Part shown: in pieces, positions 18,304 through 41,717 of the stretch
Position numbering within the stretch: position 1 is the first letter of the stretch
Layout of the letters: every line of letters starts with the position of its first letter
From: a virus
Length of the DNA: 42,302 nt
Strand: one strand, 5' to 3'
Virus record (IMG/VR): IMGVR_UViG_3300006201_000047
Notes under the pieces: generated by a model
What the model was told of the DNA's origin: nothing
Database searches by the model: none
What the model saw: only the letters and a program-made list of their open reading frames with translations
Translations under genes and position numbers: made by a program

Positions 18304-18314
18304 AGGAGGGAACC

Positions 18315-28512: not shown

Positions 28513-28515
28513 GGA

Positions 28516-28725
28516 ATGTATGAATGGAAAGTAACTATTATTTTGAAAAGCGGCAATATACTTAAAGGAATATATAAAACAGATAAGTATAACAGCGAAC
28601 AGGTAGCAAAAGAAATGTTCCAAAATGTCAATTCTAATTCTGTTACAGGCTTTTCATCAGAAGATGGAAAGGAAAAAATATTCTTTTTATTGTCAGAAGT
28701 AGCAGCTTTTACAATCGGAGTGTGA
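28516..28725 (+). CDS. Hypothetical protein (69 aa)
   Basis: Compact ORF after the portal gene. Confidence 0.55.
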   Translation: MYEWKVTIILKSGNILKGIYKTDKYNSEQVAKEMFQNVNSNSVTGFSSEDGKEKIFFLLSEVAAFTIGV

Positions 28726-28729
28726 TTTT

Positions 28730-29161
28730 ATGAAAATCAGACAGCACATAGGGAATGTCGATATAAATATTGACACTAAGCGGATAGACCGAAATTTTAA
28801 AGAAGCCCAAAAATTGCTGAATATGCAAGTGGTGGCCGACTGCGACCCTCTGATACCATTCCAGCAGGGAACGCTCCGTAACAGCGTGAATTATCCGCAG
28901 GGGATATATGGCGGCGAGATTGAGTATAACACACCTTATGCACATTATCAGTATAAAGGTGAGGTATATGGTCCAAATATCCCTATAAAGGACGCAGAGG
29001 GCAATATAACCAGCTGGTACTCTCCACCAAAGAAGAACCCGACAGGGCGACCTCTTACATACCACACATCAGGGACGGGAGACCATTGGTTTGAAAAAGC
29101 GAAAGCGCAGCACGGTGATGATTGGGTAAGGTTGGTAAAAAGAACCGCAGGAAAGGAATGA
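28730..29161 (+). CDS. Minor capsid-type structural protein (143 aa)
   Basis: LIPFQQGTLRNSV...YNTPYAHYQYKG resembles the tG.Lr.S pattern of HK97 gp10-like / minor capsid families, from memory. Confidence 0.45.
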   Translation: MKIRQHIGNVDINIDTKRIDRNFKEAQKLLNMQVVADCDPLIPFQQGTLRNSVNYPQGIYGGEIEYNTPYAHYQYKGEVYGPNIPIKDAEGNITSWYSPPKKNPTGRPLTYHTSGTGDHWFEKAKAQHGDDWVRLVKRTAGKE

Positions 29162-29165
29162 TATT

Positions 29166-29345
29166 ATGATTAAGTATTTTGAATATGGAGTACATAGAAA
29201 TTCTGATGATACTCTGGAAATTGAAGCGTACTTGATTGATGATGTTATCAATAATTATGCAGAGGAAAACGGATTAGAAGTTGTTTCAGCAACTTGCTAT
29301 AAGGAAGAGGGAATATTTGTTGTATTTAAGAAGATGAATGGATAG
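29166..29345 (+). CDS. Small ORF (59 aa; below the track cutoff)
   Basis: Hand translation: MIKYFEYGVHRNSDDTLEIEAYLIDDVINNYAEENGLEVVSATCYKEEGIFVVFKKMNG. Confidence 0.45.
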   Translation: MIKYFEYGVHRNSDDTLEIEAYLIDDVINNYAEENGLEVVSATCYKEEGIFVVFKKMNG

Positions 29346-29381
29346 ATTTAGTCAAGAGGACAGCAGGAAAGGAGTAGTGGA

Positions 29382-29612
29382 ATGAAAAATTTTAGAGGAT
29401 GGCAACCAATATCAGAGTATAGCAGAGAAAAATATGATTGGGTGCTTATTAAGTATTTTGACGGGGAGGAAGAATGTCTGCCACAAGTTGCAGAGTTAAG
29501 GTCTGACGGAAAGTGGCATATAAGCACAGACTTTGACGGAGATTTTGTTATACCGTCACAGTTTGATGTTAGATACTTTTTCGATATGCAACAGCTTGAC
29601 AGGATGGATTGA
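29382..29612 (+). CDS. DUF551-like small protein (76 aa)
   Basis: WQPISEY...WVLIKYFDGEE...DGKWHI resembles the DUF551 pattern. Confidence 0.45.
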   Translation: MKNFRGWQPISEYSREKYDWVLIKYFDGEEECLPQVAELRSDGKWHISTDFDGDFVIPSQFDVRYFFDMQQLDRMD

Positions 29613-29615
29613 GCT

Positions 29616-30884
29616 ATGTTGCCGCCGGAATACTTCGACCACAAAGAGGATAGATTGCTTGAACTCTACCGACAACTCGAAAACTTTATCCTCAAAGACA
29701 TCACCCGACGCCTACTCTCCGCTGGGGAAATGACCGCAACCGCCGACCGCCTTATCTGGAAATTGCAGCAGATGGGCGAGAGCCAGGCGGCGATTGAGCA
29801 GAAATTGCAGAAGTTGACGGGTCTGACACGAAAAGAACTTCGCTTCCTCCTGCAAGATGCCGTTCTGACTTCGTGGGAGGACGATAGAGCAACTTTAGGA
29901 CAGTTAGGCATAGAATTATCGAACCCACTTGAAAATGCCGCTGTAATCCGTATTATGGACGCTGAATATAAAAAGAGCTTAAGTGAATTAACGAACCTCA
30001 CACGAACGACCATGAATCAGTCGCAGATTGACCTTATAAATATGCTTGATGAAGCTGATTTGAAGGTTTCTTCTGGTGCACAAAGCTATTCAGAGGCGGT
30101 ATGTGATATTCTGGATAGGTATGCTGTCCGAGGGATATATGTGGATTATCCGAGTGGTGCACGCCGGACACTGGAAGCGGCGGTTAGATTGTGCGTTGTC
30201 ACATCAATGAACCAGACAGCAGCACAGGTCACGAATCAGTACATAGTTGAGGGCGGAATTGAGTATGTCCTTGTATCGGCGCATCTGGGGGCGAGAGTGG
30301 CGCAGAAAGGACAGCCAGCTCTTGCTTCTCATGCAGACTGGCAAGGCAAGGTGTATAAAATCCGAGGGACCACATCAGAATACCCGAATTTACTGGAACG
30401 GACAGGCTATGATGTGGACCCGAACACCGGGCAAGGGACCGTTAAAAATCCGCTTGGATTACACGGATACAACTGCCGGCACTCACACAAGCCTTGGGAT
30501 AAGCTCCTACGCAATCCCTATGTGGACGAAAAAGGCAATCTGAAAATAGACAGCGAGGAAAACAAAAAGCGGTATGAACTCCAACAGAAACAGCGTGCAA
30601 TGGAGCGGAGTCTGCGGGCATGGAAACGAAAGCTGATTGTGAAAGAGCAGGAAATATCCGGCGTGGCAGAAACGGACGTTAAGGAGATATTGCAGAGGGA
30701 TTATGACCGCATGGCGTACCAGCTCACACAGAAAAACAAGGCGTACAACGATTTCTGCAAACAGAACGACTTGCAGCCGCAGTATGACCGCATAAAGGTA
30801 GCTGATTTCGGCAGGGAGCAGACAAAGCGGAGTAATGCTGGGGCAAGGAGATATAAGAAAGAAAAGGAGAAGGAAGAATCATGA
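29616..30884 (+). CDS. Head morphogenesis / minor capsid protein (SPP1 gp7, Phage_Mu_F / minor-capsid-2 type, 422 aa)
   Basis: The MLPPEYFDHKEDRLLELYRQLENFILKDITRRL N-terminus and the GYNCRHSHKPW motif are typical of this family. It sits in the portal-proximal position. Confidence 0.75.
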   Translation: MLPPEYFDHKEDRLLELYRQLENFILKDITRRLLSAGEMTATADRLIWKLQQMGESQAAIEQKLQKLTGLTRKELRFLLQDAVLTSWEDDRATLGQLGIELSNPLENAAVIRIMDAEYKKSLSELTNLTRTTMNQSQIDLINMLDEADLKVSSGAQSYSEAVCDILDRYAVRGIYVDYPSGARRTLEAAVRLCVVTSMNQTAAQVTNQYIVEGGIEYVLVSAHLGARVAQKGQPALASHADWQGKVYKIRGTTSEYPNLLERTGYDVDPNTGQGTVKNPLGLHGYNCRHSHKPWDKLLRNPYVDEKGNLKIDSEENKKRYELQQKQRAMERSLRAWKRKLIVKEQEISGVAETDVKEILQRDYDRMAYQLTQKNKAYNDFCKQNDLQPQYDRIKVADFGREQTKRSNAGARRYKKEKEKEES

Positions 30885-31039
30885 TGGACGTTAAAGACGC
30901 ACATAAGGTAACTGATAATTTGTGGAAAAGACCATTTATATGCCACGAGAATTACATTGAGCTGGACAATGGATATGTGATTGCGAAGAAAGAGTATTTT
31001 AATGAGTTACAGAGAAAGGCAGAGAAAACCTCTGAATAA
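30881..31039 (+). CDS. Small ORF (52 aa)
   Basis: Hand translation: MMDVKDAHKVTDNLWKRPFICHENYIELDNGYVIAKKEYFNELQRKAEKTSE. Its ATG overlaps the upstream TGA. Confidence 0.45.
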   Translation: MMDVKDAHKVTDNLWKRPFICHENYIELDNGYVIAKKEYFNELQRKAEKTSE

Positions 31040-31073
31040 TTGGTACAACCCCCGCACGAATCTGTTGTAAAAT
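31040..31073 (+). promoter_or_regulatory. Copy of the phage-specific promoter motif (TTGGTACAAC-N17-gTAAAAT), head of the cargo island
   Basis: Matches the other copies. It is followed by the leader ATTGTGGTAGGAGGTAGGGA. Confidence 0.6.
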
Positions 31074-31093
31074 TGTGGTAGGAGGTAGGGAAG

Positions 31094-31411
31094 ATGAGTA
31101 TAATAAGCGAACAGGTAAGAGAACTGCGTTATAAAGCTGATATTTACAACGCTGTCGGGAGCGCATGGGAATTAAACCGTGCGGAGGCAAAGATATTACA
31201 GAGATTGCTTAGAAAAGCCGCTGACACCATAGAGGCATTATCCAAAAAGTTGGCGACAAACGGCGGCTGGATTCCATGCAGTGAGCCGCCAAAGCATGAC
31301 AAAGAAGTTTTGATATTCAACGGGAAATCATACTCTGTGGGATATTATGATGGGAAAACATGGGTAAATGCAATACACCCCGTGGAATGGCAGGAGATAC
31401 AGCATGAATAA
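31094..31411 (+). CDS. Coiled-coil plus DUF551-like protein (105 aa)
   Basis: The C-terminus reads NGGWIPCSEPPKHDKEVLIFNGK...DGKTW. Confidence 0.5.
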   Translation: MSIISEQVRELRYKADIYNAVGSAWELNRAEAKILQRLLRKAADTIEALSKKLATNGGWIPCSEPPKHDKEVLIFNGKSYSVGYYDGKTWVNAIHPVEWQEIQHE

Positions 31412-31775
31412 TAGATGGGTAGAATATAACAGCAATCCTTTAAAAAGACGTGTCGGCGACTGCGCCATTCGTGCGTGCTGCAAGGCTACAAACCGCACAT
31501 GGAATGAAGTCTTTGACGACCTTGTGCAGATTGCGTACCGTCAAAAGGATGTTTTGTCAGCAAATAAAGTATGGGGTGAATACCTGGCAGATAACGGCTA
31601 TGTTCGCTATGAGCCGGATTACCCTATGGACGTTTACAAATTTTGCTGCAACTTTCCGCATGGTACATACGTTCTTGGGCTTGACGGTCATGTAGTGACG
31701 GTGGTGGACGGGCGGTTCTATGATACTTGGGATTCGTCCGGGAAGAGTGTGATTTATTTTTGGGAGAGGGGATAG
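31404..31775 (+). CDS. Putative papain-like Cys/His enzyme (123 aa)
   Basis: NPLKRRVGDCAIRACCKA (a GDC nucleophile-like motif) and later LDGHVVTVVDGRFYDTWDS (a GH motif). This is inferred from a motif pattern seen in phage proteins. Confidence 0.4.
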   Translation: MNNRWVEYNSNPLKRRVGDCAIRACCKATNRTWNEVFDDLVQIAYRQKDVLSANKVWGEYLADNGYVRYEPDYPMDVYKFCCNFPHGTYVLGLDGHVVTVVDGRFYDTWDSSGKSVIYFWERG

Positions 31776-31778
31776 GCA

Positions 31779-32102
31779 TTGACAAGGAAAGAAGCTATAG
31801 GAGAATTTCAAGTACAGATAAGCACTCTTGAAAGCATGATTGCGTATAATAATGACTTTGAACCCAAAAGTGATAATTCAAGGCTGATAGAGAGAATGGA
31901 AGCGGCGAAAGTGGCTATATCTGCATTGGAAGAATTGGAACGCTGGCACACCGACCGTATCAATGAGAAAATCAAGAATCCGTTTGCATGGACTTCTACC
32001 TCTATTTGCCACAACTGCGACCATAAAGACGAATACATAGAGGAATTGGAAACAGAGATTCAAGAGTTGAAACAGAAATATGAGATTGCAACCACTCCCT
32101 AA
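31779..32102 (+). CDS. Hypothetical coiled-coil protein (107 aa, TTG start)
   Basis: An ORF with a CHNCDH motif and a C-terminal coiled coil. Confidence 0.5.
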   Translation: MTRKEAIGEFQVQISTLESMIAYNNDFEPKSDNSRLIERMEAAKVAISALEELERWHTDRINEKIKNPFAWTSTSICHNCDHKDEYIEELETEIQELKQKYEIATTP

Positions 32103-32142
32103 AATTGCTATAATGAGGGAAATACAGAGCGGAGGTTTGGGA

Positions 32143-32292
32143 ATGGAAATGCCAGTAATAATAGGCTCATTGGTGATACTTGGTGAAATATCAATTTTGG
32201 CTTTTATGCTGATGAAAGAGTGGTTTCTTCCGTTTGTCGGTCAATGTGTTTGTGATTTTTGTGGAAAGGTTAAGGGAAGATATGGAAAATAG
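32143..32292 (+). CDS. Small membrane protein (49 aa)
   Basis: MEMPVIIGSLVILGEISILAFMLM is TM-like, followed by a CVCDFC motif. Confidence 0.45.
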   Translation: MEMPVIIGSLVILGEISILAFMLMKEWFLPFVGQCVCDFCGKVKGRYGK

Positions 32293-32548
32293 GGATAATG
32301 TGAAGGAAAAAGAAAACGGCGCAACCGATGTATTGGGCGCACTGGTTAAGCAGCTTAAAACAATGTGGATAGTGATTGTTCTTTTAATTATTCTGCTTGT
32401 CGGAACAAATATGGCTTGGTTGTATGTGTTCCAGTCCTATGACTATGTATCACAGGACGGCGAGGGATATAATTATTACAACAAAGAGATTGAAGGTGAT
32501 GTGCATAATGGGACAGAAGATAAGAAGCAAGAAGAAGGGCAGAACTAG
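32282..32548 (+). CDS. Single-pass membrane protein (88 aa)
   Basis: TM helix MWIVIVLLIILLVGTNMAWLYVF followed by an acidic, Tyr-rich tail. Confidence 0.5.
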   Translation: MENRDNVKEKENGATDVLGALVKQLKTMWIVIVLLIILLVGTNMAWLYVFQSYDYVSQDGEGYNYYNKEIEGDVHNGTEDKKQEEGQN

Positions 32549-32580
32549 GGGAACTAAGAAGAAAAGAAAGTAGCGGTGGC

Positions 32581-32853
32581 ATGAGGAAGAAAAAAGAAAA
32601 GGAAGTTGAAGGATTTGTCAAATGGGAGTTGGAACTTTTTAAAAATGAGTGCAATTTCACGCCGGACGAATCCATGTTCTTTGATTTGAGGAATGAGGGC
32701 GATGGAATGAGTTTTGAAGAAATCGCCGGTCAAATGGGATATTGCATGACTAAAATCAATAAACTTTCTGAATCCGTCACCAAAAAGATTATAAAGGTAT
32801 TGCCGCTTAAAGAGGCATTTTTCAAGAAATACCGCGATAAATACGGAGAATAA
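32581..32853 (+). CDS. Sigma-70 region-4-like HTH protein (90 aa)
   Basis: MSFEEIAGQMGYCMTKINKLSESVTKKIIKVL matches the LSyeEIAe.lg.s..tVk.rl.ra.kkl pattern. Confidence 0.55.
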   Translation: MRKKKEKEVEGFVKWELELFKNECNFTPDESMFFDLRNEGDGMSFEEIAGQMGYCMTKINKLSESVTKKIIKVLPLKEAFFKKYRDKYGE

Positions 32854-32954
32854 TTGAATAAAAAACGCAACAAAAACGAGGGTTTTCCGAGTATGGGAAA
32901 CTCTCTATTTTTATGCAAAAATTTACCCATAGAAAGAAATCGGAGGGCATTCAG

Positions 32955-33476
32955 ATGGCATATTCAAATCAATACCAACCATATCAGTACCAATATGCGC
33001 CACAGGTGCAGCCGCCTATGGACAGGCTGGCGCAGTTGCAGGCGCAGCAGTATCAGCCTATGCAGCAACCAGCACAATCAAATCAATCATTGATTTATGT
33101 GCAAGGAGAGGCGGCGGCTAAAAGCTGGATTGTAGGAGCCGGGCAGTCCGTATTGCTGATGGACAGTGAGAATCCAGTGTTTTATATCAAATCTGCAGAT
33201 GCTTCTGGGATTCCGTTGCCGCTTCGGGTATTTGATTATACAGAACGCAATCAGAGTATGCCGCAGAACGCACCACAATCCGTAAATCCGGCTCAAATAG
33301 ATTTAGATAGACAATATGTCACAAGAGCGGAATATGACGACTTGCAGGGAAAATATGCGGAGATTTTGGACAGACTGAATAACTTTCCTGTCAATATTTC
33401 AACTGGCGATGATACCAAGAGAACAACGGCAGGAACAAGCAAGCCAAGAAATAAGGGAGGGAATGCTAATGAGTAG
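32955..33476 (+). CDS. Gln/Pro/Tyr-rich N-terminus plus conserved-looking core protein (173 aa)
   Basis: MAYSNQYQPYQYQYAPQVQPP...QQYQPMQQPAQSNQ, followed by VQGEAAAKSWIVGAGQSVLLMDSENPVFYIKSADASGIP. Confidence 0.6.
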   Translation: MAYSNQYQPYQYQYAPQVQPPMDRLAQLQAQQYQPMQQPAQSNQSLIYVQGEAAAKSWIVGAGQSVLLMDSENPVFYIKSADASGIPLPLRVFDYTERNQSMPQNAPQSVNPAQIDLDRQYVTRAEYDDLQGKYAEILDRLNNFPVNISTGDDTKRTTAGTSKPRNKGGNANE

Positions 33477-33681
33477 TCCGGTTTTCGGAGCAATGGGCGG
33501 TCGGGGCGGCGGAAATATGATGCAGCAGTTCCAACGCTTTATGCAGGAAATGAAAGGGAAGAACCCACAGGAGGAAATAAATAAGCTGCTCCAATCTGGA
33601 AAAGTAAGTCAGCAGCAACTTAATCAAGTACAACAGCAAGCCCAGCAGATGCAGGGGATGTTTAAAGGATTTTTTAAGTAG
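33469..33681 (+). CDS. Gln/Met-rich small protein (70 aa)
   Basis: MSSPVFGAMGGRGGGNMMQQFQRFMQEMKGKNPQEE...QQQLNQVQQQAQQMQGMF. RBS AAGGGAGGG is present. Confidence 0.55.
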   Translation: MSSPVFGAMGGRGGGNMMQQFQRFMQEMKGKNPQEEINKLLQSGKVSQQQLNQVQQQAQQMQGMFKGFFK

Positions 33682-33730
33682 ATACATAACTTTGCGCAAA
33701 GTTTGTAAATAAATTTCAAGGAGTAAAAAC

Positions 33731-34528
33731 ATGATGGAATCAGGAGTACCAATTACGATGAACGTAGAGCCTAGTGGCTGTAATAACAATAACGGCGGCT
33801 TCGGCGGAGATTGGGGCGCATGGATTATCCTTTTCCTTATCTTTGGTATGTTCGGCTGGGGCGGTTTCGGCGGCTTTGGTGGAGGATTCGGCGGAAATTC
33901 CGCAGGATTACAGGGAGCTTTAACCCGCGCGGATATCAATGAAGGATTTGCCCTTAATAACTTGCAGAGCGGTATCAATGCCATTCAGCAGGGCATCTGT
34001 GACAGCACCTATGCACTCACAAACGCCGTAAACAGCGGCTTCAACAGCACGCAGATGGGAATGATGCAGGGATTTAACGGTGTTGAGCGTGGATTTTGCA
34101 ACCTGTCCAGTCAGATTTCCGATTGTTGCTGCCAGACGCAGCGCGCGATTGACGGCGTGAACTACAACATGGCGAAGAACACATGTGATTTACAAAATAC
34201 CATGAATGTAAACACACGCGACATTATCGACAGCCAGAACGCAGGCACAAGGGCAATCCTCGACTATCTGTGCCAGGAGAAGATTTCTGACTTACAGGCA
34301 GAGAACCAGACGCTGAAACTGGCAGCATCCCAGGCGAACCAGAACGCAACACTTATGGCAGCCATGGACGCTAACACGGCGCAGATTATCCGCAGAACCG
34401 GCAACGACTGCCCTATTCCGGCATATGTCGTACAGCCCCCGGCGCAGGTATCTTTCCCGACAAATTGTTGCGGACAGTTCAACGGCGGCGGTTGGGGCGG
34501 TAACTGCAATCAGTGTGGCAACTGCTAA
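33731..34528 (+). CDS. Gly/Cys/Asn-rich membrane-anchored protein (265 aa), YjcZ-like N-terminal segment
   Basis: GGFGGDWGAWIILFLIFGMFGWGGFGGFGGGFGG near the N-terminus, a CCC triplet, and the C-terminus NCCGQFNGGGWGGNCNQCGNC. Confidence 0.65.
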   Translation: MMESGVPITMNVEPSGCNNNNGGFGGDWGAWIILFLIFGMFGWGGFGGFGGGFGGNSAGLQGALTRADINEGFALNNLQSGINAIQQGICDSTYALTNAVNSGFNSTQMGMMQGFNGVERGFCNLSSQISDCCCQTQRAIDGVNYNMAKNTCDLQNTMNVNTRDIIDSQNAGTRAILDYLCQEKISDLQAENQTLKLAASQANQNATLMAAMDANTAQIIRRTGNDCPIPAYVVQPPAQVSFPTNCCGQFNGGGWGGNCNQCGNC

Positions 34529-34599
34529 AAACTGAAAAATGAGTATCTTTTCCGTGAAACATCGGAAATGTTCGGCATGAGCCGTTATTACAACGTGGG

Positions 34600-34626
34600 A
34601 GGGCAGAACATTGATTCTGTCCTTTT
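34600..34626 (+). terminator. Hairpin plus T4 after the Gly/Cys-rich gene
   Basis: AGGGCAG / CTGTCCT (one G-U pair) with a 10-nt loop, followed by TTTT. Confidence 0.45.
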
Positions 34627-34645
34627 GCGATTAACTGGACATTGA

Positions 34646-34665
34646 CAACTGAATATAGCTGATAG
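34646..34665. repeat. Left inverted repeat flanking the methyltransferase-like cassette
   Basis: CAACTGAATATAGCTGATAG. Its reverse complement recurs at 35343-35361 with one 1-nt indel. Confidence 0.85.
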
Positions 34666-34666
34666 A

Positions 34667-34700
34667 ATGGTACAAATCACACCTTGAAATATGAGATAAT
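34667..34700 (+). promoter_or_regulatory. Copy of the phage-specific promoter motif (ATGGTACAAA-N17-aGATAAT)
   Basis: Matches the other copies in spacing. It is the most divergent copy. Confidence 0.5.
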
Positions 34701-34734
34701 ATGTGTATGAAAGCAAAGAGAGGATAGGTGTGGA

Positions 34735-35331
34735 ATGAGAGTTTTAGTTGCTTGTGAGGAAAGTCAAGCTGTAACAATAGAATTGCGGAGATTGGGGCAT
34801 GAAGCGTATTCGTGCGACATTGAGGAATGTTCCGGCGGACACCCGGAATGGCATTTACAGCAGGACGTGACACAGCTTTTGAAAATGAAATGGGATATGA
34901 TTATAGCATTCCCACCATGTACATATCTTTCCAATGCAGGAGCGAAGCATTTATGGAAAGACCATGTTTTGAATGAAGAACGGTACATGAAAGGACTTGA
35001 AGCAAAGAAATTCTTTATGCAGTTTCTCAATGCGGATTGTCCGAGGATTGCGGTAGAAAATCCCGTATCAAGCCGGATATTCGGTATGCCGCCGCACACG
35101 CAGGAAATACAGCCTTACCAATTTGGACACCCGGTACAGAAAAAGACACGCTTATGGCTGCGTGGATTGCCGAAGTTGATACCGACAAATGAGGTTGATT
35201 ATAAATGCAACTGTCACGAAGCAGGAACATGGTTTATGAAAGGCGGCAAAGATAGGCAGAAAAACAGAGCAAAGACATTTCCGGGAGTTGCTAAGGCAAT
35301 GGCGGAACAATGGGGAGGAAAAACAGAATAA
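34735..35331 (+). CDS. C5-cytosine-methyltransferase-like protein lacking a canonical motif I (198 aa)
   Basis: IAFPPCTYLS looks like motif IV (PC) and IAVENPVSS like motif VI (ENV). The N-terminus MRVLVACEESQ replaces FxGxG. The protein is far shorter than a complete Dcm-type enzyme. Confidence 0.55.
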   Translation: MRVLVACEESQAVTIELRRLGHEAYSCDIEECSGGHPEWHLQQDVTQLLKMKWDMIIAFPPCTYLSNAGAKHLWKDHVLNEERYMKGLEAKKFFMQFLNADCPRIAVENPVSSRIFGMPPHTQEIQPYQFGHPVQKKTRLWLRGLPKLIPTNEVDYKCNCHEAGTWFMKGGKDRQKNRAKTFPGVAKAMAEQWGGKTE

Positions 35332-35342
35332 GACCATTAAAA

Positions 35343-35361
35343 CTATCAGCTATATCAGTTG
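35343..35361. repeat. Right inverted repeat flanking the methyltransferase-like cassette (overlaps an AT-rich terminator-like hairpin plus T-run)
   Basis: CTATCAGCTATATCAGTTG is the reverse complement of 34646-34665 minus one A. Confidence 0.85.
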
Positions 35362-35388
35362 GTAGTTTTTTATTTGGAGGAAAATAAC

Positions 35389-35811
35389 ATGGCAGAATAT
35401 ACTGGAATTGCCTTGCAGACCGTAGAAGCAGGGCAGAATGTTGTATTAACCGAAACCCCCGTGTGCGGTTCAAACTGCATACAGCACAGGGAGGGGAGCG
35501 GCATTGTAAAATTGAGAGGACTTACCAATAACTGCAAGGCAAGATTTCTTGTCAGCTTTTCGGGAAATATCCAGATTCCGACAGGCGGCACGGTTGAAGC
35601 TATCTCCGTAGCGATTGCGGTTGACGGAGAGCCTTTGCAGTCCACCAGAATGATTGTAACCCCGTCGGCGGTTGAGAACTTCTTTAATGTGTCCGCACAG
35701 GCTTACATAGACGTGCCGAGAGGGTGCTGTGCAACCGTGGCGGTCGAAAACACGTCCACACAGGCGATTCAGGTGCAGAACGCTAACCTGATTGCAGTAA
35801 GGGAGGGTTGA
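35389..35811 (+). CDS. BclA-C-terminal-domain-like (C1q/TNF-type jelly-roll) protein (140 aa)
   Basis: The pattern ...GQNVVLTE...GSGIVKL...ARFLVSFSGNIQIP.GGTVEAISVAIAVDGEPL...NANLIAV resembles BclA/BclB CTD proteins, from memory. RBS GGAGGA is present. Confidence 0.45.
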   Translation: MAEYTGIALQTVEAGQNVVLTETPVCGSNCIQHREGSGIVKLRGLTNNCKARFLVSFSGNIQIPTGGTVEAISVAIAVDGEPLQSTRMIVTPSAVENFFNVSAQAYIDVPRGCCATVAVENTSTQAIQVQNANLIAVREG

Positions 35812-35813
35812 TC

Positions 35814-36353
35814 ATGCATAAATTAAGAGAAAACGCAGAAAAAGAGTTAAAAGCGATTGAGGAAAAAGGCTTATCCCAGTCCAACATTGACAATGCCTAT
35901 AAGCTTGTGGAGATTGTGAAGGGCGTGGACAAAATCAACATGATGGAAGAGGGCGGCGGTTATTCCAGAGATGGGTACAGTCGTGATATGGAGGATTACA
36001 GCCGGGATAGTGGTTATGGTGGTGGTAACAGCCGTGACCGTGGGTATTCCCGTGATAACTACGACAACGGCAATTCATACCGCAGAGGACGCAACCAGCG
36101 CACCGGGGAATATATGCACCGTCCGAACCATTCCCGCCTTTCTGGAGATGATACCGACATGGACGAGTATCGTAGCCGGAAAATGGAATACTCCAACAGC
36201 CGGGATGATGGTGCGAAGAACAGAATGCTTGACGCTTTGGAAGATTTTATGTCTGGCGTGCATGGCATGATGAAACAGATGTTCAAGGATGCGGACTGTC
36301 GGGAAGAAAGGGAGATTATCCAGAACTGGGCAAGGAAAATTGCAGAGATGTAA
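35814..36353 (+). CDS. Protein with a central (Y/N)SRD-repeat low-complexity region (179 aa)
   Basis: GGGYSRDGYSRDMEDYSRDSGYGGGNSRDRGYSRDNYDNGNSYRRGRN is flanked by helical N- and C-terminal domains. Confidence 0.6.
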   Translation: MHKLRENAEKELKAIEEKGLSQSNIDNAYKLVEIVKGVDKINMMEEGGGYSRDGYSRDMEDYSRDSGYGGGNSRDRGYSRDNYDNGNSYRRGRNQRTGEYMHRPNHSRLSGDDTDMDEYRSRKMEYSNSRDDGAKNRMLDALEDFMSGVHGMMKQMFKDADCREEREIIQNWARKIAEM

Positions 36354-36363
36354 TATTGCAGAG

Positions 36364-36390
36364 GGGCGGCAGTGATGCCGCTCTTTTGCT
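36364..36390 (+). terminator. Intrinsic terminator
   Basis: GGGGCGGCA-GTGA-TGCCGCTC forms an 8-bp stem with one G-U pair, followed by TTTTGCTTT. Confidence 0.7.
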
Positions 36391-36395
36391 TTAAG

Positions 36396-36429
36396 TTGGT
36401 ACAAATAATTTATTCATTCGTGGTATGAT
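36396..36429 (+). promoter_or_regulatory. Copy of the phage-specific promoter motif (TTGGTACAAA-N17-gTATGAT)
   Basis: Matches the other copies. It lies immediately after a terminator. Confidence 0.55.
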
Positions 36430-36478
36430 AATTTCAGTAGGGGAGTTTTCCCCTGTCGGAAACCGCAAAAGGGAGGAT

Positions 36479-36790
36479 ATGGGAATGGTAAAGTTACAGT
36501 CAAAAGATGAACCGATAACAGTTTTTTATTTTAGAAATATGCAGGATTGCGAAGCATTTATGCATGTGTTTAAAGACCACTGGTGCAATGTTGAATGGAA
36601 TGAAGTGATAGAAAGACCAGATTTTCCGGAAATGAGCAGGTATCAGAGAGAGGCTTTGAACAAAGACCCGAAAGAGCGCGCAGAAAGCAATTTGTCATGG
36701 GGATTCAACCTTGATAGGAAGTTTAACAGGGGATTAAACGACAACCAAAACGCTTTTGTTTCTGCTATGATTTGGAGGATGACCGTTTAA
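36479..36790 (+). CDS. Hypothetical protein (103 aa; alternative ATG at 36485)
   Basis: RBS GGGAGG is present. No motif recognised. Confidence 0.6.
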   Translation: MGMVKLQSKDEPITVFYFRNMQDCEAFMHVFKDHWCNVEWNEVIERPDFPEMSRYQREALNKDPKERAESNLSWGFNLDRKFNRGLNDNQNAFVSAMIWRMTV

Positions 36791-36791
36791 T

Positions 36792-36825
36792 TTGGTACAA
36801 CTACCCCACCAAACTGCGGTACAAT
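36792..36825 (+). promoter_or_regulatory. Copy of the phage-specific promoter motif (TTGGTACAAC-N17-gTACAAT)
   Basis: Matches the copy at 24265 in the 10-mer and the -10. Confidence 0.6.
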
Positions 36826-36833
36826 ATAAGCAT

Positions 36834-36944
36834 AAAAGGCATTAGGAAATGGGCGCGACATAAGGTAAGACCGATATGTAGGCACTGAATATAATCAAAG
36901 ACAGGGACAAATGGGAAGCGTTTTCTGCGGTACTAATGCTTTTT
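36834..36944 (+). promoter_or_regulatory. Long structured 5' leader: a 12-bp closing stem around ~87 nt
   Basis: AAAAGGCATTAG (36834-36845) pairs with CTAATGCTTTTT (36933-36944), including one G-U pair. It lies between the promoter and the first ORF of the operon. Confidence 0.4.
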
Positions 36945-36972
36945 ATAAATGGAAATCAGGAGGGATAGGAAA

Positions 36973-37158
36973 ATGGAATCGGTAAGAGGTATATTTTGTT
37001 TGAACAGTAAATGCAAAAATTATTATGAAGATAATTGCATGAAAATTTTTGAAGATAATACAGTACATATTTCGGAAGATGGAAGATGTGAAGATTTTGA
37101 AAAGGGAAAATACATAGGTTACAGTGACAGTCCTGAACCGATAGGAGAACAGCCATGA
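36973..37158 (+). CDS. Small Cys-rich protein (61 aa)
   Basis: CLNSKCKNYYEDNC...DGRCEDF. RBS AGGAGGG is present. Confidence 0.55.
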   Translation: MESVRGIFCLNSKCKNYYEDNCMKIFEDNTVHISEDGRCEDFEKGKYIGYSDSPEPIGEQP

Positions 37159-37316
37159 CACAATACCAATGGGTACTCTGCCCCATCTGCGGAGGAAAAA
37201 CCAGGACGAAAATCAGACCGGACACGGAGGCGAAAAATCTCATTGTGTTCTGCCCGAAGTGCAAGAGGGAAACGGTTATAGATATTAAAGAGGGCAAGAC
37301 AGAAAATATAAAATAA
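37155..37316 (+). CDS. Cys-rich KTR-type zinc-ribbon protein (53 aa; below the track cutoff)
   Basis: Hand translation: MTQYQWVLCPICGGKTRTKIRPDTEAKNLIVFCPKCKRETVIDIKEGKTENIK. The CPxCGxKTR...FCPKCK pattern matches PF14205. Confidence 0.6.
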   Translation: MTQYQWVLCPICGGKTRTKIRPDTEAKNLIVFCPKCKRETVIDIKEGKTENIK

Positions 37317-37340
37317 ATAAAATTTGTGGAGGGAATTTGC

Positions 37341-38099
37341 ATGAACAAAACAAAGATTGACTGGTGTGATTCAACATGGAATCCGGTTACTGGGTGTAAT
37401 CATGGGTGTGAATACTGCTATGCAAGAGGTATAGCGCACAGATTCGGATTTCACGCAAGCGAACCGGATATTAACGAAAGAGTATTACTTGAATGTCCGG
37501 TAAGCGCAGGAAAGAAAGTTCCATATCCATTTGACTTTCATCCGACATTCCATAAATACCGCTTGAATGATTATATCGGAAAACAAGGAAGGAACATTTT
37601 TGTCTGCTCTATGGCTGATTTGTTCGGGAAGTGGGTGCCAGACAGTTGGATTGAGGAAGTGTTTAGGTCTTGCGAAAAAGCACCACATCACAATTATTTG
37701 TTTCTGACAAAGAATCAGCAAAGATATATTGAACTGTCAGAAAAAGGATTGTTGCCAAATAAACATTGGTATGGTTACTCTGTAACAAAGCAATCTGATT
37801 TATGGGAATTTCATCATGCAGACGATTGTGCAGTGAAAAATCTGTTTGTTAGCATAGAACCTATACTAGAACCAATAAGCCCCGGATTTTGTTCGCATTG
37901 TCCGGCTGATTGGGTAATAATCGGAGCTGAAACTGGACGGAGAAAAGACAAGGTTGTTCCAAAGCGAGAATGGGTTGAAAGAATTGTGATGGAATGTGAA
38001 TATTCCGATATTCCGGTATTTATGAAATCAAGCCTTGCAGATATATGGGGCGAACCACTCATACAGGAATTTCCAAAAGAATTAATGAAAATTAAATAG
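37341..38099 (+). CDS. Phage Gp37/Gp68 family (DUF5131) protein with a CX3CX2C motif (252 aa)
   Basis: MNKTKIDWCDSTWNPVTGCNHGCEYCYARG is the characteristic N-terminus of PF07505. Confidence 0.75.
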   Translation: MNKTKIDWCDSTWNPVTGCNHGCEYCYARGIAHRFGFHASEPDINERVLLECPVSAGKKVPYPFDFHPTFHKYRLNDYIGKQGRNIFVCSMADLFGKWVPDSWIEEVFRSCEKAPHHNYLFLTKNQQRYIELSEKGLLPNKHWYGYSVTKQSDLWEFHHADDCAVKNLFVSIEPILEPISPGFCSHCPADWVIIGAETGRRKDKVVPKREWVERIVMECEYSDIPVFMKSSLADIWGEPLIQEFPKELMKIK

Positions 38100-38124
38100 T
38101 TTAGTGTCAGTAACAAAGTTTCAG

Positions 38125-38168
38125 TGCCAGTAGATACGAGAAATCGTGTTTGCTGGCATTTTTATTTT
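38125..38168 (+). terminator. Intrinsic terminator after the Gp37/Gp68 gene
   Basis: Outer stem TGCCAG / CTGGCA with inner hairpin ACGA-GAAA-TCGT, followed by TTTTTATTTT. Confidence 0.7.
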
Positions 38169-38214
38169 GACATTATCTAATATTTGATAGATTTCCTAAC
38201 CCTCCTAAGAGGGT

Positions 38215-38265
38215 GCATCCGTCAGTAATGGTGCTGTAAAGGCGGTTCGATTCCGCACAGGTGCA
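38215..38265 (+). ncRNA. Truncated tRNA-like element (acceptor stem plus T-arm, no complete D or anticodon arms)
   Basis: GCATCCG pairs with CAGGTGC (6 of 7 positions). The T-arm is GGCGG-TTCGATT-CCGCA, with T at position 8. Only ~18 nt lie where the D and anticodon arms should be. Confidence 0.4.
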
Positions 38266-38367
38266 TTTGCGCTTGTGGTTATGCTTTCTGCTTGCAGGTG
38301 GTCTATGGCGCAGGTGCAACATTTCCCTTATCCTAGCGTCTGCCCCTTGTGGGTGGGCGCACTCCCT

Positions 38368-38446
38368 TGAAGCGTAGCCTAACGGATAGAGCGACCATTG
38401 CTTTAACAGGCAAGGGAAGATGTTGGTTCGATTCCAGCCGCTTCAA
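38368..38446 (+). tRNA. tRNA-like gene (79 nt) with an irregular anticodon arm; anticodon unresolved
   Basis: Perfect 7-bp acceptor TGAAGCG/CGCTTCA, a D-arm with GG, and T-arm GTTGG-TTCGATT-CCAGC. The anticodon region only folds with a bulge and an 8-nt loop, TTTAACAG. Confidence 0.6.
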
Positions 38447-38531
38447 TTTTGGACAAGCCAAGTCCTACAAAATGGCAGACCGTTGGTGGACGGTTACACA
38501 CCTATAAATAACCTAATAACGGAGGGAATAC

Positions 38532-39149
38532 ATGAAAACAGATGAATTAAAGGCTTGGGGGCTGACAGATGAACAGTCCGAAAAGGTTATGGCGCAGTAT
38601 GGGAAGGACGTTTCCAAATTGCAGAAAGAGAATGAGAATCTGACCGCTGACCGTGACAAGGAGAAGGAGCGGGCTGACACCGCAGAGGAAACGCTGAAAA
38701 AGTTTGACGGCGTGGACGTGGAAACCATGCAGGCAGAGCTTGCAACATGGCAGCAGAAAGCAAAGGACGCTGAAAAGGATTATGCGGACAAGCTGGCGCA
38801 GCGTGATTTCGAGGACGCTTTGAAAGAGGAAATCAGCAGCTACAAGTTCACTTCCGAAGCGGCAAAAGAAGCAATCATGGCAAGAATCAGAGGAGCCGGA
38901 CTGAAAGTAAAGGACGGAAAAATTTTAGGACTGTCTGACTTGCTGGCGCAGATGAAAGAGAAAGACGCTTCCGCTTTTGTTGACGAAAAGCAGGAAGAAC
39001 TTGAAGCAGGACGGGCGAAACCGTTCACGGGGCCGCTGAATCCGAATGGCGGCGGCGCAAAGAAAATGACAAGGGAGGAAATCTTCGGCATTAAAGACAG
39101 GACAGAAAGGCAGAAAGCCATAGCCGAGAATCTCTCTGAATTTCAGTAA
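38532..39149 (+). CDS. Scaffolding protein (205 aa)
   Basis: Highly charged coiled-coil protein directly upstream of the major capsid gene. It resembles GP20/DUF4355-type scaffolds. Confidence 0.75.
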   Translation: MKTDELKAWGLTDEQSEKVMAQYGKDVSKLQKENENLTADRDKEKERADTAEETLKKFDGVDVETMQAELATWQQKAKDAEKDYADKLAQRDFEDALKEEISSYKFTSEAAKEAIMARIRGAGLKVKDGKILGLSDLLAQMKEKDASAFVDEKQEELEAGRAKPFTGPLNPNGGGAKKMTREEIFGIKDRTERQKAIAENLSEFQ

Positions 39150-39161
39150 AGGAGAATAATA

Positions 39162-40142
39162 ATGGCAGAAATTACAACGGCGGCACATGAGAATTTAATT
39201 AAAAGTGCTGACATACAGGTTACATCAAGAAAAATCGACTTTGTAACGCAGTTCGCCCGTAACTGGGAAGCGTTACAGGAAGTTATGGGTATTACACGCC
39301 CTATTGAGAAGCCGAACGGCACAGAACTCACGTCAAAGTACGCAGAGGGTGAGTTACAGGACGGAAAAGTCGGCGAGGGTGAGTTTATTCCCCGTTCCCA
39401 CTTTACCGTAAAAGAAAAGCCGTATGCAAAGATTACGGTTGAGAAGTATGCAAAAGAGGTATCTATCGAAGCAGTCGCAGAACACGGAGAGGAAGCGGCT
39501 ATCAACATGACAGACGAAGAGTTTCTTGTCGAGTTGCAGGAAAACGTGACCGGCAGATTTTACGACTACCTCAAGACAGGCACAATGACATTCGAGGAAA
39601 AGACTTTTCAGATGGCTTTCGCTATGGCTCTTGGCAAGGTGAAGGACAAGTTCAAGAAAATGCACAGGAACGTTACCGGAATTGCGGTATTTGTAAATAC
39701 ACTTGACTTGTACGCATATCTTGGCAGTTCCGAAATTACCATGCAGACGGCTTTCGGTTTTACCTATCTGAAAAACTTTCTCGGCGCAGAACTGACTTTC
39801 GTTTCCAGCGAGATTCCGAGAGGGCAGATGATTGCAACGCCTATCAATAATATTGTTTCCTACTATGTAAATCCACAGAACAGCGGATTTGCAAAACTTG
39901 GATTGCATTACACCACAGATGGCGTGACAAATCTGATTGGTTTTGCGGTAGCAGGAGATTATGACCGAGCAACAGGCGTTTCATATGCTCTGATGGGCTT
40001 TACACTCTTTGCAGAATACATTGACGCTATTGCGGTTGTAACAATCAACCCAAACAGCACAAACCCGGAATCTGAAAATGTTACCCCGGTAACTCCGACG
40101 GCAAAAACCGCAAAAGCGGCAAAAGAGAGCAATCTCTCATAA
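39162..40142 (+). CDS. Major capsid protein (326 aa)
   Basis: Follows the scaffold gene. Size and composition are typical of SPP1 gp13-like HK97-fold capsid proteins. RBS AAGGAG is present. Confidence 0.8.
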   Translation: MAEITTAAHENLIKSADIQVTSRKIDFVTQFARNWEALQEVMGITRPIEKPNGTELTSKYAEGELQDGKVGEGEFIPRSHFTVKEKPYAKITVEKYAKEVSIEAVAEHGEEAAINMTDEEFLVELQENVTGRFYDYLKTGTMTFEEKTFQMAFAMALGKVKDKFKKMHRNVTGIAVFVNTLDLYAYLGSSEITMQTAFGFTYLKNFLGAELTFVSSEIPRGQMIATPINNIVSYYVNPQNSGFAKLGLHYTTDGVTNLIGFAVAGDYDRATGVSYALMGFTLFAEYIDAIAVVTINPNSTNPESENVTPVTPTAKTAKAAKESNLS

Positions 40143-40151
40143 GGAGTAGGC

Positions 40152-40709
40152 ATGTACGCAGATTATACCTATTACCAAACTGAATACGGCGGAAAAATGT
40201 CTGCGGACGATTACAAGCGATTTAGTCGGAGGGCAGAACGCAGGATTGACGGCATAACCGGAAATAAACTGCAATTTGCCTTTCCGACCAATGAGCGAGA
40301 CGTGGAAGCGGTCAAGGATTGCGTTTGTGAAATGGCGGACTTCCTTTATCAGATTGACAGTTACAATGCCGCCGCTATGGAGAGCATGGGAACGGTGGCG
40401 CAGGCTGACGGGACGGTAAAGGGCAAGGTTATAACGTCCATTTCAAGCGGTTCTGAAAGCATTGGATATTCTGCCGCTGGTTCTGCCAGTACCGCCACAA
40501 TGGAGGCGGCAAAAGATAAGAAAGTGGCTGACGCTATGGTGTATGGTATTGTGCGTGACGGTTTGGGCGGCGTGCCGGACGCAAACGGTGTCAATCTTCT
40601 GTATGCCGGAATCCCCTACCCACGCCGCAATGCCCCGATAAGCAGGCCGCCGGAGGATAAGCCAGTGGATAAGCCAACGGAGCCAGAGGAAAGCGAGGGC
40701 GGCGAATAA
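40152..40709 (+). CDS. Head-tail connector / adaptor (gp6/gp15-like, 185 aa)
   Basis: The N-terminus YADYTYYQTEYGG...DDYKRFSRRAERRID is typical of DNA-packaging / head-tail connector proteins. It is the first gene after the capsid gene. Confidence 0.55.
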   Translation: MYADYTYYQTEYGGKMSADDYKRFSRRAERRIDGITGNKLQFAFPTNERDVEAVKDCVCEMADFLYQIDSYNAAAMESMGTVAQADGTVKGKVITSISSGSESIGYSAAGSASTATMEAAKDKKVADAMVYGIVRDGLGGVPDANGVNLLYAGIPYPRRNAPISRPPEDKPVDKPTEPEESEGGE

Positions 40710-40984
40710 TGGGAACTATATCACAAATGGCTGAAAAGTGCCAGAAATGCCCCAAGAGGGATAAATGCGACTACAAAAAAATGTGTGCTTGTGCATACAT
40801 TGATGAACCGCAGATTGCCAGAGAAGCCGGTATCAGTGCCGGAGTGAGCGCGGCGGCTCCTGCTTTGCGTGAAACCATGCAAATCAATGTCGGCGGCGTA
40901 ATGACTACCGTTTACAAAGATGAAATTGAAAAAGAGATATACAAGGCATTACGTGAGCCTTTTATGTTGAATTACGGAGCGTGA
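40709..40984 (+). CDS. Cys-rich small protein in the connector module (91 aa)
   Basis: CQKCPKRDKCDYKKMCAC. The ORF is translationally coupled. Confidence 0.55.
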   Translation: MGTISQMAEKCQKCPKRDKCDYKKMCACAYIDEPQIAREAGISAGVSAAAPALRETMQINVGGVMTTVYKDEIEKEIYKALREPFMLNYGA

Positions 40985-41702: not shown

Positions 41703-41717
41703 TGAAGGGAGTAGCCT

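Follow-up and report, generated by a model that had tools for sequence, protein, structure and literature searches.

An accessory gene region between the gp7-like and scaffold genes of a temperate siphovirus: exchanged units, a mobile cassette and an RNA slot

Anatomy of the region

We studied the DNA between the gp7-like and the scaffold gene in the IMG/VR record IMGVR_UViG_3300006201_000047. The window, i.e., the whole stretch analysed (42,302 nucleotides (nt)), is a complete 42.3-kb temperate siphovirus genome that is opened within its structural genes. The investigated region (30881-38531, called the island in the following) spans 7,651 bp or 18% of the genome. Our main finding is that the island is probably the main plasticity zone of this phage lineage, located at the seam between the packaging/portal/gp7 and the scaffold/capsid genes and composed of slots with exchangeable genes, a mobile cassette, and a tRNA slot with a GP20-b RNA.

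The left flank is a gp7/MuF-like minor capsid gene (29616-30884, plus strand, 422 amino acids (aa)) that matches Pfam PF06152 Phage_min_cap2 with an E-value (E) of 3e-78. It is preceded by a portal-like (27064-28512) and a large-terminase-like open reading frame (ORF; 25439-27064), both labelled by position and size. The right flank encodes the scaffolding protein (38532-39149, plus strand; PF06810 Phage_scaffold, E 9e-29; phrog_194) and is followed by the gene of the major head (capsid) protein (39162-40142; phrog_544). That is, terminase, portal, gp7/MuF-like, scaffold and major capsid genes are found in SPP1-type order on one strand, interrupted by the ~7.6 kb that an earlier reading of the sequence (the original prediction) had reported between the two flanks. 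Within the island, we count 17 plausible ORFs (i01-i17) rather than the ~20 genes announced there. All of them, as well as all other island elements given below, are on the plus strand. No island protein matches a structural family in Pfam, PHROGs or NCBIfam, in agreement with the earlier statement that the island has no recognisable structural genes.

Gap size and gene turnover among relatives

Relatives were retrieved with the gp7-like protein, which provided 80 IMG/VR loci and 27 loci in bacterial genomes (L-numbers denote loci). Close bacterial loci are mostly from Lachnospiraceae (genomes and metagenome-assembled genomes), many of them from a mouse-gut catalogue. Both flanks are present in 37 loci, in which gp7 and scaffold are separated by 128 bp (L106) to 9,688 bp. 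Gaps of 0.4-1.5 kb prevail in the distant clade, where more than 20 relatives show them, and gaps of 2.7-9.7 kb among loci with a gp7 identity of at least 62%. In 17 long-gap loci, we find 148 gene families, 116 of which are seen once. According to Pfam, the cargo of relatives includes two GIY-YIG and one HNH/NUMOD4 homing endonuclease, Rha, a P22-type antirepressor, YopX, a PBECR2 nuclease, a radical-SAM-like protein and a large serine recombinase. The variation in gap size, the many families with a single occurrence and the mobile-type cargo jointly support the reading as a cargo hotspot. The organisation of this accessory DNA in promoter-led, terminator-closed units is likewise supported.

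Given the large insert at this position, we also asked whether the island might be an assembly chimera or foreign DNA wrongly joined to the phage contig. We found nothing in favour of this and give it almost no credence. Across the gp7-i01-i02-i03 junction, the sequence is matched at 100% identity by L001, an independent IMG/VR contig, the gp7-island-scaffold arrangement recurs in dozens of independent assemblies, isolate genomes among them, and the island genes are co-oriented and of uniform composition.

The flanks themselves vary as well. In relatives with a gp7 that is 82-90% identical, scaffold identities range from 37 to 91%, portal identities from 33 to 94%, and the capsid protein is 62-98% identical or undetectable. 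Since these identities vary while gp7 stays within its narrow range, the flanking modules have been exchanged independently. Furthermore, two promoter-motif copies (see below) are found between gp7 and scaffold in short-gap relatives. From these sequence comparisons, the gp7/scaffold junction is more likely a seam between two transcription units than the interior of a head operon that would be split by the island, as was first assumed. The spread of portal identities relative to those of gp7 suggests a second mosaic joint on the portal side of gp7. Four small ORFs are located between portal and gp7 (28516-29612), including a Minor_capsid_2 protein (28730-29161).

Nor is the place unusual, as the original prediction had it. 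According to the SPP1 genome paper (PMC6316719), ORFs 8-10, located between genes 7 and 11, mark the boundary of the packaging/portal/gp7 and the capsid module, and ORFs of this kind are counted among the morons. It is thus the same junction with moron ORFs ahead of the scaffold-capsid module; SPP1 gp7 is dispensable and internal (PMC6316719). The position is already known, and what stands out is the size: SPP1 carries three ORFs, while here 17 ORFs and additional RNAs fill 7.65 kb. SPP1 differs also in being virulent and in having no integration module at the seam.

A megablast search of 25400-42302 against GenBank phages returned only one short match, to Dulem virus 35, i.e., no close cultured relative.

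Late-type promoters and hairpins

In the window, we find six copies of the octamer TGGTACAA (at 11946, 24266, 31041, 34668, 36397 and 36793), all of them intergenic, on the plus strand and with TAnAAT exactly 19 nt downstream. By chance, 0.86 copies are expected, and none of 100 shuffles reaches six. The copy at 11946 precedes the lysis cassette, the one at 24266 the packaging genes, and the remaining four lie within the island where they had been reported before. The early and lysogeny regions of the window are free of it. Within 1.75 Mb of related loci, the plus (gene) strand carries 204 copies of TGGTACAA, compared to 4 copies on the minus strand. 151 of the 203 plus-strand copies examined show TAnnnT at +28..+33, and the spacer contains a conserved AAnCT.

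Since TGGTACAA is unlike the sigma-A -35 hexamer at any workable spacing, we infer that TGGTACAA-N19-TAnAAT is a late promoter specific to the phage and dependent on a phage factor. Its presence ahead of both the packaging and the lysis operon and its absence from the early and lysogeny regions fit late timing, and a promoter type common to these two operons argues against expression from a repressed prophage. The island would thus be expressed late rather than in lysogeny.

Copy 1 (31041-31073; TGGTACAA-N19-TAAAAT) has near-identical counterparts in relatives, where it is located 53 nt 5' of a next gene that varies (i02, c37, c69, c71, c92 or c144). Copies 2 and 3 span 34668-34700 and 36397-36429, respectively. 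Promoters of the same type as copy 4 (36793-36825) precede differing small genes ahead of the scaffold gene in relatives. Outside the island, the copy at 11946-11978 directly follows the tail-fibre gene, 5' of holin and endolysin, and has a weaker -10 element (TAGAAT).

Five stable hairpins with U-rich tracts (-15.5 to -26.6 kcal/mol) are placed at unit boundaries. The region's terminator-like sites in total (21 vs. 15.5 +/- 3.7 by chance) are not in excess. Four of the five are the terminators previously noted at 34600, ~35340, 36364 and 38125; the fifth is found at 32878-32905. The latter (-15.7 kcal/mol) is followed by the conserved motif ATGCAAAAATTTACCCAT, and both together (32878-32930) precede i08. 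Relatives show differing hairpins at this position, then the same ATGC(A/G)AAAAT(T/A)TA(C/A)CCAT motif. Hairpins recur at the same positions ahead of both i08 and i12, some with a different hairpin sequence. After i10, a terminator hairpin (34597-34628, -19.6 kcal/mol) has similar counterparts in L085, Dulem virus 35 and L110, where i12 follows directly. Another hairpin (35339-35369, -15.5 kcal/mol) abuts the ribosome-binding site of i12 and is nearly identical in relatives (equivalent positions in L002-L091 and L113) whichever gene is upstream; it therefore travels with i12. Together with its T-run (35339-35388), it could be an attenuator or RNA-stability element instead of a simple terminator. 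The remaining terminators follow i13 (36358-36389, -25.4 kcal/mol) and i17 (38123-38160, -26.6 kcal/mol).

Variable cargo

Only Cys_rich_KTR (i16) and DUF5131 (i17) are matched above the curated Pfam cut-offs, and scans of Pfam, NCBIfam and PADLOC return nothing for most island proteins. In PHROGs, i11 matches a 'DNA methyltransferase' family, and i03, i08, i09, i10, i12 and i13 strongly match families without an assigned function. Directly behind gp7, a 52-aa ORF (i01, 30881-31039; in 2/17 long-gap loci) overlaps the gp7 stop codon with its start. It is followed by i02 (31094-31411, 105 aa; 4/17 loci), which had been labelled DUF551-like. Its C-terminus indeed shows weak likeness, but with 15.6 bits (E 0.03) it stays below the gathering score of 22 of Pfam DUF551 (PF04448). 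The next cargo genes encode a coiled-coil-like protein of 107 aa (i04, 31779-32102; phrog_10714, E 4e-7; 1/17 loci) and a small protein with one hydrophobic helix (i05, 32080-32292; Kyte-Doolittle 19-residue maximum 2.46).

The clearest single-gene unit is i11 (34735-35331, 198 aa). Together with promoter copy 2 and the second hairpin, it forms a clean promoter-gene-terminator insertion between i10 and i12. In relatives, this slot holds different genes, including radical-SAM-like and uncharacterised proteins. The protein is C5-methyltransferase-like based on phrog_757 'DNA methyltransferase' (E 9e-57), and by eye we recognise a PC motif (FPPC) as well as an ENP motif that replaces the usual ENV. 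Its length does not suffice for a complete C5 methyltransferase including the target-recognition domain. Pfam and the PDB give no match, and PADLOC MTase_II is matched at E 0.039.

Further downstream, i14 (36485-36790, ~101 aa; 2/17 loci) has no family match; its start is probably 36485 because the -10 element of promoter copy 3 overlaps the ATG at 36425. The zinc-ribbon proteins described earlier correspond to two small Cys4 proteins, i.e., i15 (36949-37158; phrog_4279, E 5e-9) and i16 (37155-37316; Pfam Cys_rich_KTR, E 5e-22; 8/17 loci). The Gp37/Gp68 protein is encoded by i17 (37326-38099), which carries a radical-SAM-like Cys motif and matches DUF5131 (PF07505, E 9e-44) with 150.3 bits, for a gathering score of 28.9.

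Such contents raise the question of whether the island chiefly comprises counter-defence or defence genes, comparable to anti-CRISPR or anti-restriction loci with small helix-turn-helix (HTH) regulators. The methyltransferase-like i11, the matches of i17 to the PADLOC candidate models PDC-M41B and PDC-M30B (E about 1e-42), the small possible HTH protein i07 and the very high turnover are in line with this, as are the PBECR2 nuclease, antirepressors, Rha and radical-SAM proteins that occupy the same slots in relatives. On the other hand, no island protein matches a named PADLOC defence system, most of the cargo is without annotation, and late timing would be odd for anti-restriction, which is needed early. 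Since the conserved cassette described below is also left unaccounted for, we consider this explanation unlikely, although it is the best placed among the alternatives and is compatible with a membrane-associated accessory role of that cassette, which we prefer.

When compared to morons in the Hendrix/Juhala sense, as described for lambdoid phages (HK97/HK022 late operon; PMC3594210), the island shares the extra DNA between genes that are adjacent in relatives (128 bp in L106 vs. 7.65 kb here), the presence of own promoters and terminators as judged from sequence, with i11 flanked by both as in a textbook moron, and the horizontal spread. It differs in that its promoters are of the phage's own late type rather than constitutive or lysogeny-active, in that several units are multi-gene, and in its composition, which is not distinct from the flanks: the GC content is 0.38-0.47 in the island, 0.43-0.50 in the flanking head genes and 0.35-0.48 in the rest of the genome.

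The conserved cassette

A recurring gene string is visible in the maps of relatives: i03 ... i06-i07-i08-(i09)-i10 ... i12-i13. We refer to i08-i09-i10 as part A and to i12-i13 as part B of the cassette. Of the 17 long-gap loci, 8-12 carry the respective families, with identities of 26-98%. The close relatives L006/L007, L089 and L092 are without the cassette; two of these cassette-less relatives have a scaffold that is 61-72% identical.

The first member, i03 (31404-31775, ~123 aa; phrog_3754, E 6e-35), was initially described as papain-like. This label finds no backing, as i03 has no match in Pfam, NCBIfam or PADLOC and none in the PDB by sequence or family profile. Its family alignment shows invariant Cys20, His96 and Asp102/107. 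None of its at least 7,709 homologues has a Pfam domain or a name. i06 (32234-32548) is a small protein with one hydrophobic helix (Kyte-Doolittle 19-residue maximum 2.47) that is present in 10/17 long-gap loci, always right before i07. For i07 (32581-32853), a basic 90-aa protein preceding part A, the 'sigma-like HTH' label lacks profile support, as there is no Pfam match at E<0.1. It is possibly an HTH regulator: in a 29-sequence search, i07 is 27% identical (E 5e-5) to a 70-aa protein with a weak GerE match that is encoded near the cassette in L110-type phages (see below).

Part A starts with i08 (32955-33476, 173 aa), which combines a Q/Y/P-rich N-terminus with a globular C-terminal half; the phrog_21718 alignment (E 4e-46) begins at residue 14 of the longer ORF. 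Positional analogues exist in Dulem virus 35, Butyrivibrio virus Ceridwen, L110-type phages and C. perfringens phages. Analogues of the ~70-aa i09 (33469-33681, 23% Gln; phrog_22984, E 9e-32) are known from the L110-type and C. perfringens phages. i10 (33731-34528, 265 aa; phrog_16490, E 1e-97) combines a single membrane helix rich in Gly with long predicted helices. Among its 14 Cys is an invariant CCC, and the C-terminus is Cys-rich. It has homologues in crAss-like and C. perfringens phages and at least 7,990 homologues overall, none with a Pfam domain or name. Its AlphaFold2 (AF2) model is poor (predicted local distance difference test (pLDDT) 42) and unusable for a fold search; it displays only a transmembrane helix at 29-41 and the long helices.

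Part B encodes i12 (35389-35811, 140 aa; phrog_20016, E 8e-74), a predicted stand-alone TNF/C1q-like jelly roll, and i13 (35814-36353, ~179 aa; phrog_28802, E 1e-81), which has a helical N-terminus and an R/D/G/Y-rich low-complexity centre with YSRD repeats. i13 is found in 12/17 long-gap loci; R/G/Y-rich analogues are present in L110-type phages and the crAss-like phage cr4_1. The AF2 model of i12 is well defined (pLDDT 83.6, predicted template modelling (TM) score 0.80). A Foldseek search of the PDB ranks the C-terminal domain of F-BclA first (9h38; E 1e-6, TM score 0.70-0.75), then ExsF/ExsFA (9h3d, 7r1m; E 1e-4) and, subsequently, members of the TNF and C1q families. Matches in BFVD include a phage 'BclA protein' as well as C1q-domain and tail-fibre entries. 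The model thus shows i12 with a predicted BclA-C-terminal/ExsF-like TNF fold; just like ExsFA (ExsF is also known as BxpB), i12 is a stand-alone domain of ~140 aa. It differs from these proteins in its low sequence identity of 9-13%, the missing Pfam profile and the lack of a collagen-like region (no collagen-like repeats are found), and its family is also present in a B. fibrisolvens phage.

On the sequence level, i12 has no match in Pfam, NCBIfam or the PDB, and the 120 homologues listed carry no precomputed Pfam domain. The family comprises 3,830 homologues when clustered at 90% and 797 clusters at 50%. The 150 representatives listed are all short (80-196 aa, most of them 120-160 aa), and a profile search of 1.84 billion representatives gives no link to a named family among these 150. 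PDB sequence searches with i03, i10, i11 and i12 were all without a match.

The cassette is found in various other phage contexts. In Dulem virus 35, it is located between minor capsid and scaffold genes. Butyrivibrio virus Ceridwen carries i03-, i08-, i09-, i10- and i12-like genes after the endolysin, the i03 homologue being directly 5' of the cassette. In C. perfringens phages, the cassette sits between lysis and early genes. In the crAss-like phage cr4_1, an R/G/Y-rich protein, an i10 homologue (hidden Markov model E 3e-25) and a beta-rich 128-aa protein follow the holin. Annotated ORFs of this cr4_1 locus (L118 4689-7926, NC_055893.1) contain in-frame stops under table 11, which suggests that cr4_1 uses stop-codon reassignment. 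In ~58-kb human-gut phages (L110-type), the cassette is immediately beside integrase-attP. Among IMG/VR loci with an i12 relative and available upstream sequence, 79/79 have an i10 relative at most 2.4 kb 5' of it, most of these loci belonging to one lineage.

The shared gene set in several phage backbones together with the cassette-less relatives shows that the cassette is mobile, dispensable for the capsid type and not bound to head genes. Judged by this synteny, the island core (i03, i06-i10, i12-i13) is a conserved mobile cassette and not a series of independent morons. Overall, the observation of the original prediction is confirmed and its interpretation partly supported.

Many of the IMG/VR i12 loci have an integrase ~3.4 kb 5' of i12. 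Within the ~55-60-kb human-gut lineage (L122-L201), the gene 5' of the cassette is either a Tn916-type tyrosine integrase or a large serine recombinase. Two integrase types at the same ~3.4-kb position imply that the integrase was swapped while the adjoining cassette was retained. In L111 (7693-8110; ENA ERZ28757570 contig_1670, 385 kb; cf. L110 7890-8110), a ~58-kb prophage is located inside the host gene sigG. The gene, part of the operon spoIIGA-sigE-sigG', is cut after ...STYAVPM at a CCCATGG junction, and an i08-i13-like cassette is the first gene block at the prophage end, in the same orientation as sigG. We also considered a recombinase-carried mobile element, given the serine recombinase in the L093 island. 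This was rejected, since that recombinase is only 38% identical to the L110-type integrase, which does not point to a shared carrier.

Integration modules in sister phages

In L009, L010, L016, L081 and L088, a Tn916-type xis and tyrosine integrase directly follow gp7 (L009 3526-5340, L010 11262-13185, L088 11266-15939, L081 5820-7994). In the integrated copies, host genes come next, namely rimP-nusA in L088 and a low-molecular-weight phosphotyrosine phosphatase in L081. The excised forms L009 and L010 run on into promoter copy 1, i03 and the cassette, and their attP carries the first ~36 nt of the phosphatase gene. The order of gp7, xis-int and host genes means that these sister prophages end within the island site. 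Their head gene cluster is consequently physically split in the prophage.

Cargo regions adjacent to attP are known in temperate phages, e.g., the lambda b region. The sister prophages with xis-int-attP at the seam and the cassette next to attP resemble this arrangement, and other lineages show the same order. The window differs, as its integrase is found elsewhere, at the canonical spot between lysis and early genes. Its cassette is thus internal to the prophage and embedded in late genes.

RNAs ahead of the scaffold gene

The right-hand end of the island forms a component of its own. Behind the i17 terminator, a conserved block (38167-38265) is nearly invariant in at least 9 relatives (9-10) with different scaffold types. 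It starts with a sigma-A-like TTGACA-N15-TAGATT (38167-38193) with TG 1 nt 5' of the -10 element. After a small hairpin, a tRNA-like minihelix follows (38215-38265), which consists of acceptor and T arm without an anticodon arm. Its acceptor stem has 7 bp, one pair of which changes from G·U to A-U between relatives, and its T arm reads GCGG-TTCGATT-CCGC; the T-arm part weakly matches the tmRNA (transfer-messenger RNA) model.

Of the two tRNA-like RNAs that had been announced, this one is thus a truncated minihelix, while the other (38368-38446) exceeds the Rfam threshold for tRNA (37 bits, gathering score 29) with an abnormal anticodon arm. The Infernal alignment shows a 20-nt instead of a 13-nt insert at this arm, and ARAGORN reports tRNA-??? 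with a 2-base anticodon, i.e., no canonical 7-nt anticodon loop, such that the gene of the window may be decayed or specialised. In relatives, the same slot is occupied by tRNA-Ile(TAT), Gln(TTG), Tyr(GTA) or Ala.

Next to the scaffold gene, we identified a GP20-b RNA motif (38451-38515; Rfam RF03003, 41.6 bits, gathering score 36.2) that was missed before. The match covers the full model (1-62/62), ends 16 nt before the scaffold start codon and is kept with the same scaffold type in L082 and L083. As such, a full-length GP20-b directly 5' of a Phage_scaffold (formerly Phage_GP20) gene is not unusual; here, it is found behind the tRNA slot and the conserved sigma-A-like promoter. A limited literature search on GP20-b found nothing. 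In L002, ARAGORN reports a 304-nt tmRNA (18002-18305, tag ADRKLAMVA) just 5' of the conserved scaffold-leader block, which may be a phage-borne tmRNA or a false call.

Proposed mechanism and role of the cassette

Given what is observed of its anatomy, motif statistics, variability and mobility, we propose the following model for the plasticity zone. At least four slots would each be opened by the phage's own TGGTACAA-N19-TAnAAT promoter and closed by a hairpin terminator. They would hold fast-exchanged single genes or short strings (i01-i02, i04-i05, i11, i14, i15-i17), while the mobile cassette (i03, i06-i07, i08-i09-i10, i12-i13) represents a second and the small tRNA slot with the GP20-b leader a third component. 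A phage-encoded late activator or sigma factor would fire all promoter copies along with the packaging and lysis operons; with such shared activation, the cargo would be a late lytic product. The breaks in conservation are located at the regulatory elements, which points to the conserved promoter-plus-5' untranslated region and hairpin sequences as short homologous linkers for unit swaps. Such swaps may happen between co-infecting or resident phages, possibly helped by the homing endonucleases found in the zones of relatives.

Several observations weigh against this model. The GC content of the island is that of the remaining genome, i.e., there is no compositional sign of recent import. Exchange at linkers is deduced from the conservation breaks and not from observed recombinants. 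Neither of the two ORFs immediately 5' of the 24266 promoter (23605-24054, 24051-24263), as candidates for the late regulator, gives an informative match in Pfam or PHROGs. Parts A and B lack an own late-promoter copy and are each located behind a hairpin, such that their late transcription may be weak or a different promoter may be in use. Furthermore, the attP-adjacent prophage end, where the cassette is found in other phages, is a typical place for lysogen-expressed genes. Finally, the 80 loci behind the pairing of i10 and i12 relatives are mostly from one phage lineage, such that 79/79 does not represent 79 independent events.

With regard to its role, the cassette is probably not part of the capsid. 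Our best guess, which we hold weakly, is that its proteins form a joint assembly at the membrane and act in infected cells or lysogens. We rank this first, followed by counter-defence, virion proteins, lysogenic or spore-surface conversion and, last, an artefact.

The virion alternative assumes that i08-i10 and i12-i13 are dispensable virion proteins (head fibres, decoration, internal or ejected proteins), such that the island would partly be a structural head extension. This would fit the cassette's location inside the head cluster, flanked by late-type promoters and adjoining gp7, which is an internal head protein in SPP1 (PMC6316719). The TNF/C1q-like fold of i12 is common at phage fibre tips, consistent with its tail-fibre and C1q-domain matches in BFVD. 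In addition, i10-like genes of crAss-like phages are annotated as 'outer capsid protein/viral fiber' or 'spike protein' and have virion genes as neighbours; these annotations, however, are remote coiled-coil matches. Close relatives (L006/L007, L089, L092) do without the cassette, and it is found far from head genes between lysis and early genes (Ceridwen, C. perfringens phages) or beside integrase-attP (L110-type). i10 has a predicted membrane helix, and none of the cassette proteins matches a structural family of PHROGs or Pfam. We therefore regard a virion role as improbable.

Slightly further down our ranking is a lysogenic-conversion module that would be expressed from the prophage instead of serving a late lytic function and might alter the surface of the cell or spore. 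Structurally, i12 is closest to spore-surface proteins, i.e., the F-BclA C-terminal domain and ExsF/ExsFA, i10 has 14 Cys, the composition of i08, i09 and i13 is coat-protein-like, and the hosts are Lachnospiraceae. The position of the cassette as first block at the attP-adjacent end in L110-type phages (in L111 within sigG and oriented like it), the integrase ~3.4 kb 5' of i12 in many loci and the absence of own late-promoter copies in parts A and B agree with this as well. But the cassette or its i10 core is also carried by a Butyrivibrio fibrisolvens phage and by crAss-like phages, whose hosts are not known to sporulate, and by C. perfringens phage records without an integrase seen nearby. 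In the window, it is embedded among late-type promoters. The TNF/C1q fold is so widespread that the BclA/ExsF likeness is unspecific, and Pfam shows no match to families of BclA or the exosporium. A function in the spore coat or exosporium, considered for the i12 fold, the Cys-, Gln- and Tyr-rich partner proteins and the sigG-inserted prophage L111, was downgraded given the B. fibrisolvens and crAss-like phages. Sporulation-sigma promoters 5' of i08 and i12 were sought by eye and dropped as unreliable.

Returning to the membrane-associated assembly, a more far-reaching and only tentative idea is that i03, i08, i09, i10, i12 and i13, mostly accompanied by a small HTH gene, constitute a single undescribed accessory system of gut phages. 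It would build one membrane structure and move as a unit between unrelated backbones, i.e., siphoviruses of Lachnospiraceae and C. perfringens as well as crAss-like phages. A tendency to settle beside integrase-attP would place it at prophage ends and, in this lineage, in the middle of the head cluster. Its parts may be a membrane-anchored Cys-rich coiled-coil protein, a stand-alone TNF-fold protein of BclA/ExsF type, a small and possibly enzymatic Cys/His/Asp protein (i03) and disordered proteins rich in Gln or Arg/Gly/Tyr.

The island illustrates how a temperate gut phage can maintain a large gene pool of rapid turnover inside its structural cluster and leave the latter intact. The means are an inter-operon seam and the reuse of the phage's own promoter and hairpin sequences as putative exchange points. 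The split head cluster of the sister prophages bears on prophage-boundary prediction and on the reading of 'incomplete' prophages. With the i03, i10 and i12 families, which have thousands of members each in gut viromes and include i10 relatives in crAss-like phages, the cassette is a tractable target within viral dark matter.

Remaining genome

Outside the head region, the window starts with tail genes (10-11945), followed by holin (12330-12563) and amidase endolysin (12635-13723). The lysogeny block on the minus strand encodes the tyrosine integrase (15454-16515) and a CI-like repressor (17219-17590). Early and replication genes extend up to 24263, and the late packaging and head genes run from the promoter at 24266 onward. 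The structural region has a second accessory insertion among the tail genes, namely a 351-aa ORF (1786-2841) whose CxxxCxxC motif is radical-SAM-like (Pfam Radical_SAM, E 0.007).

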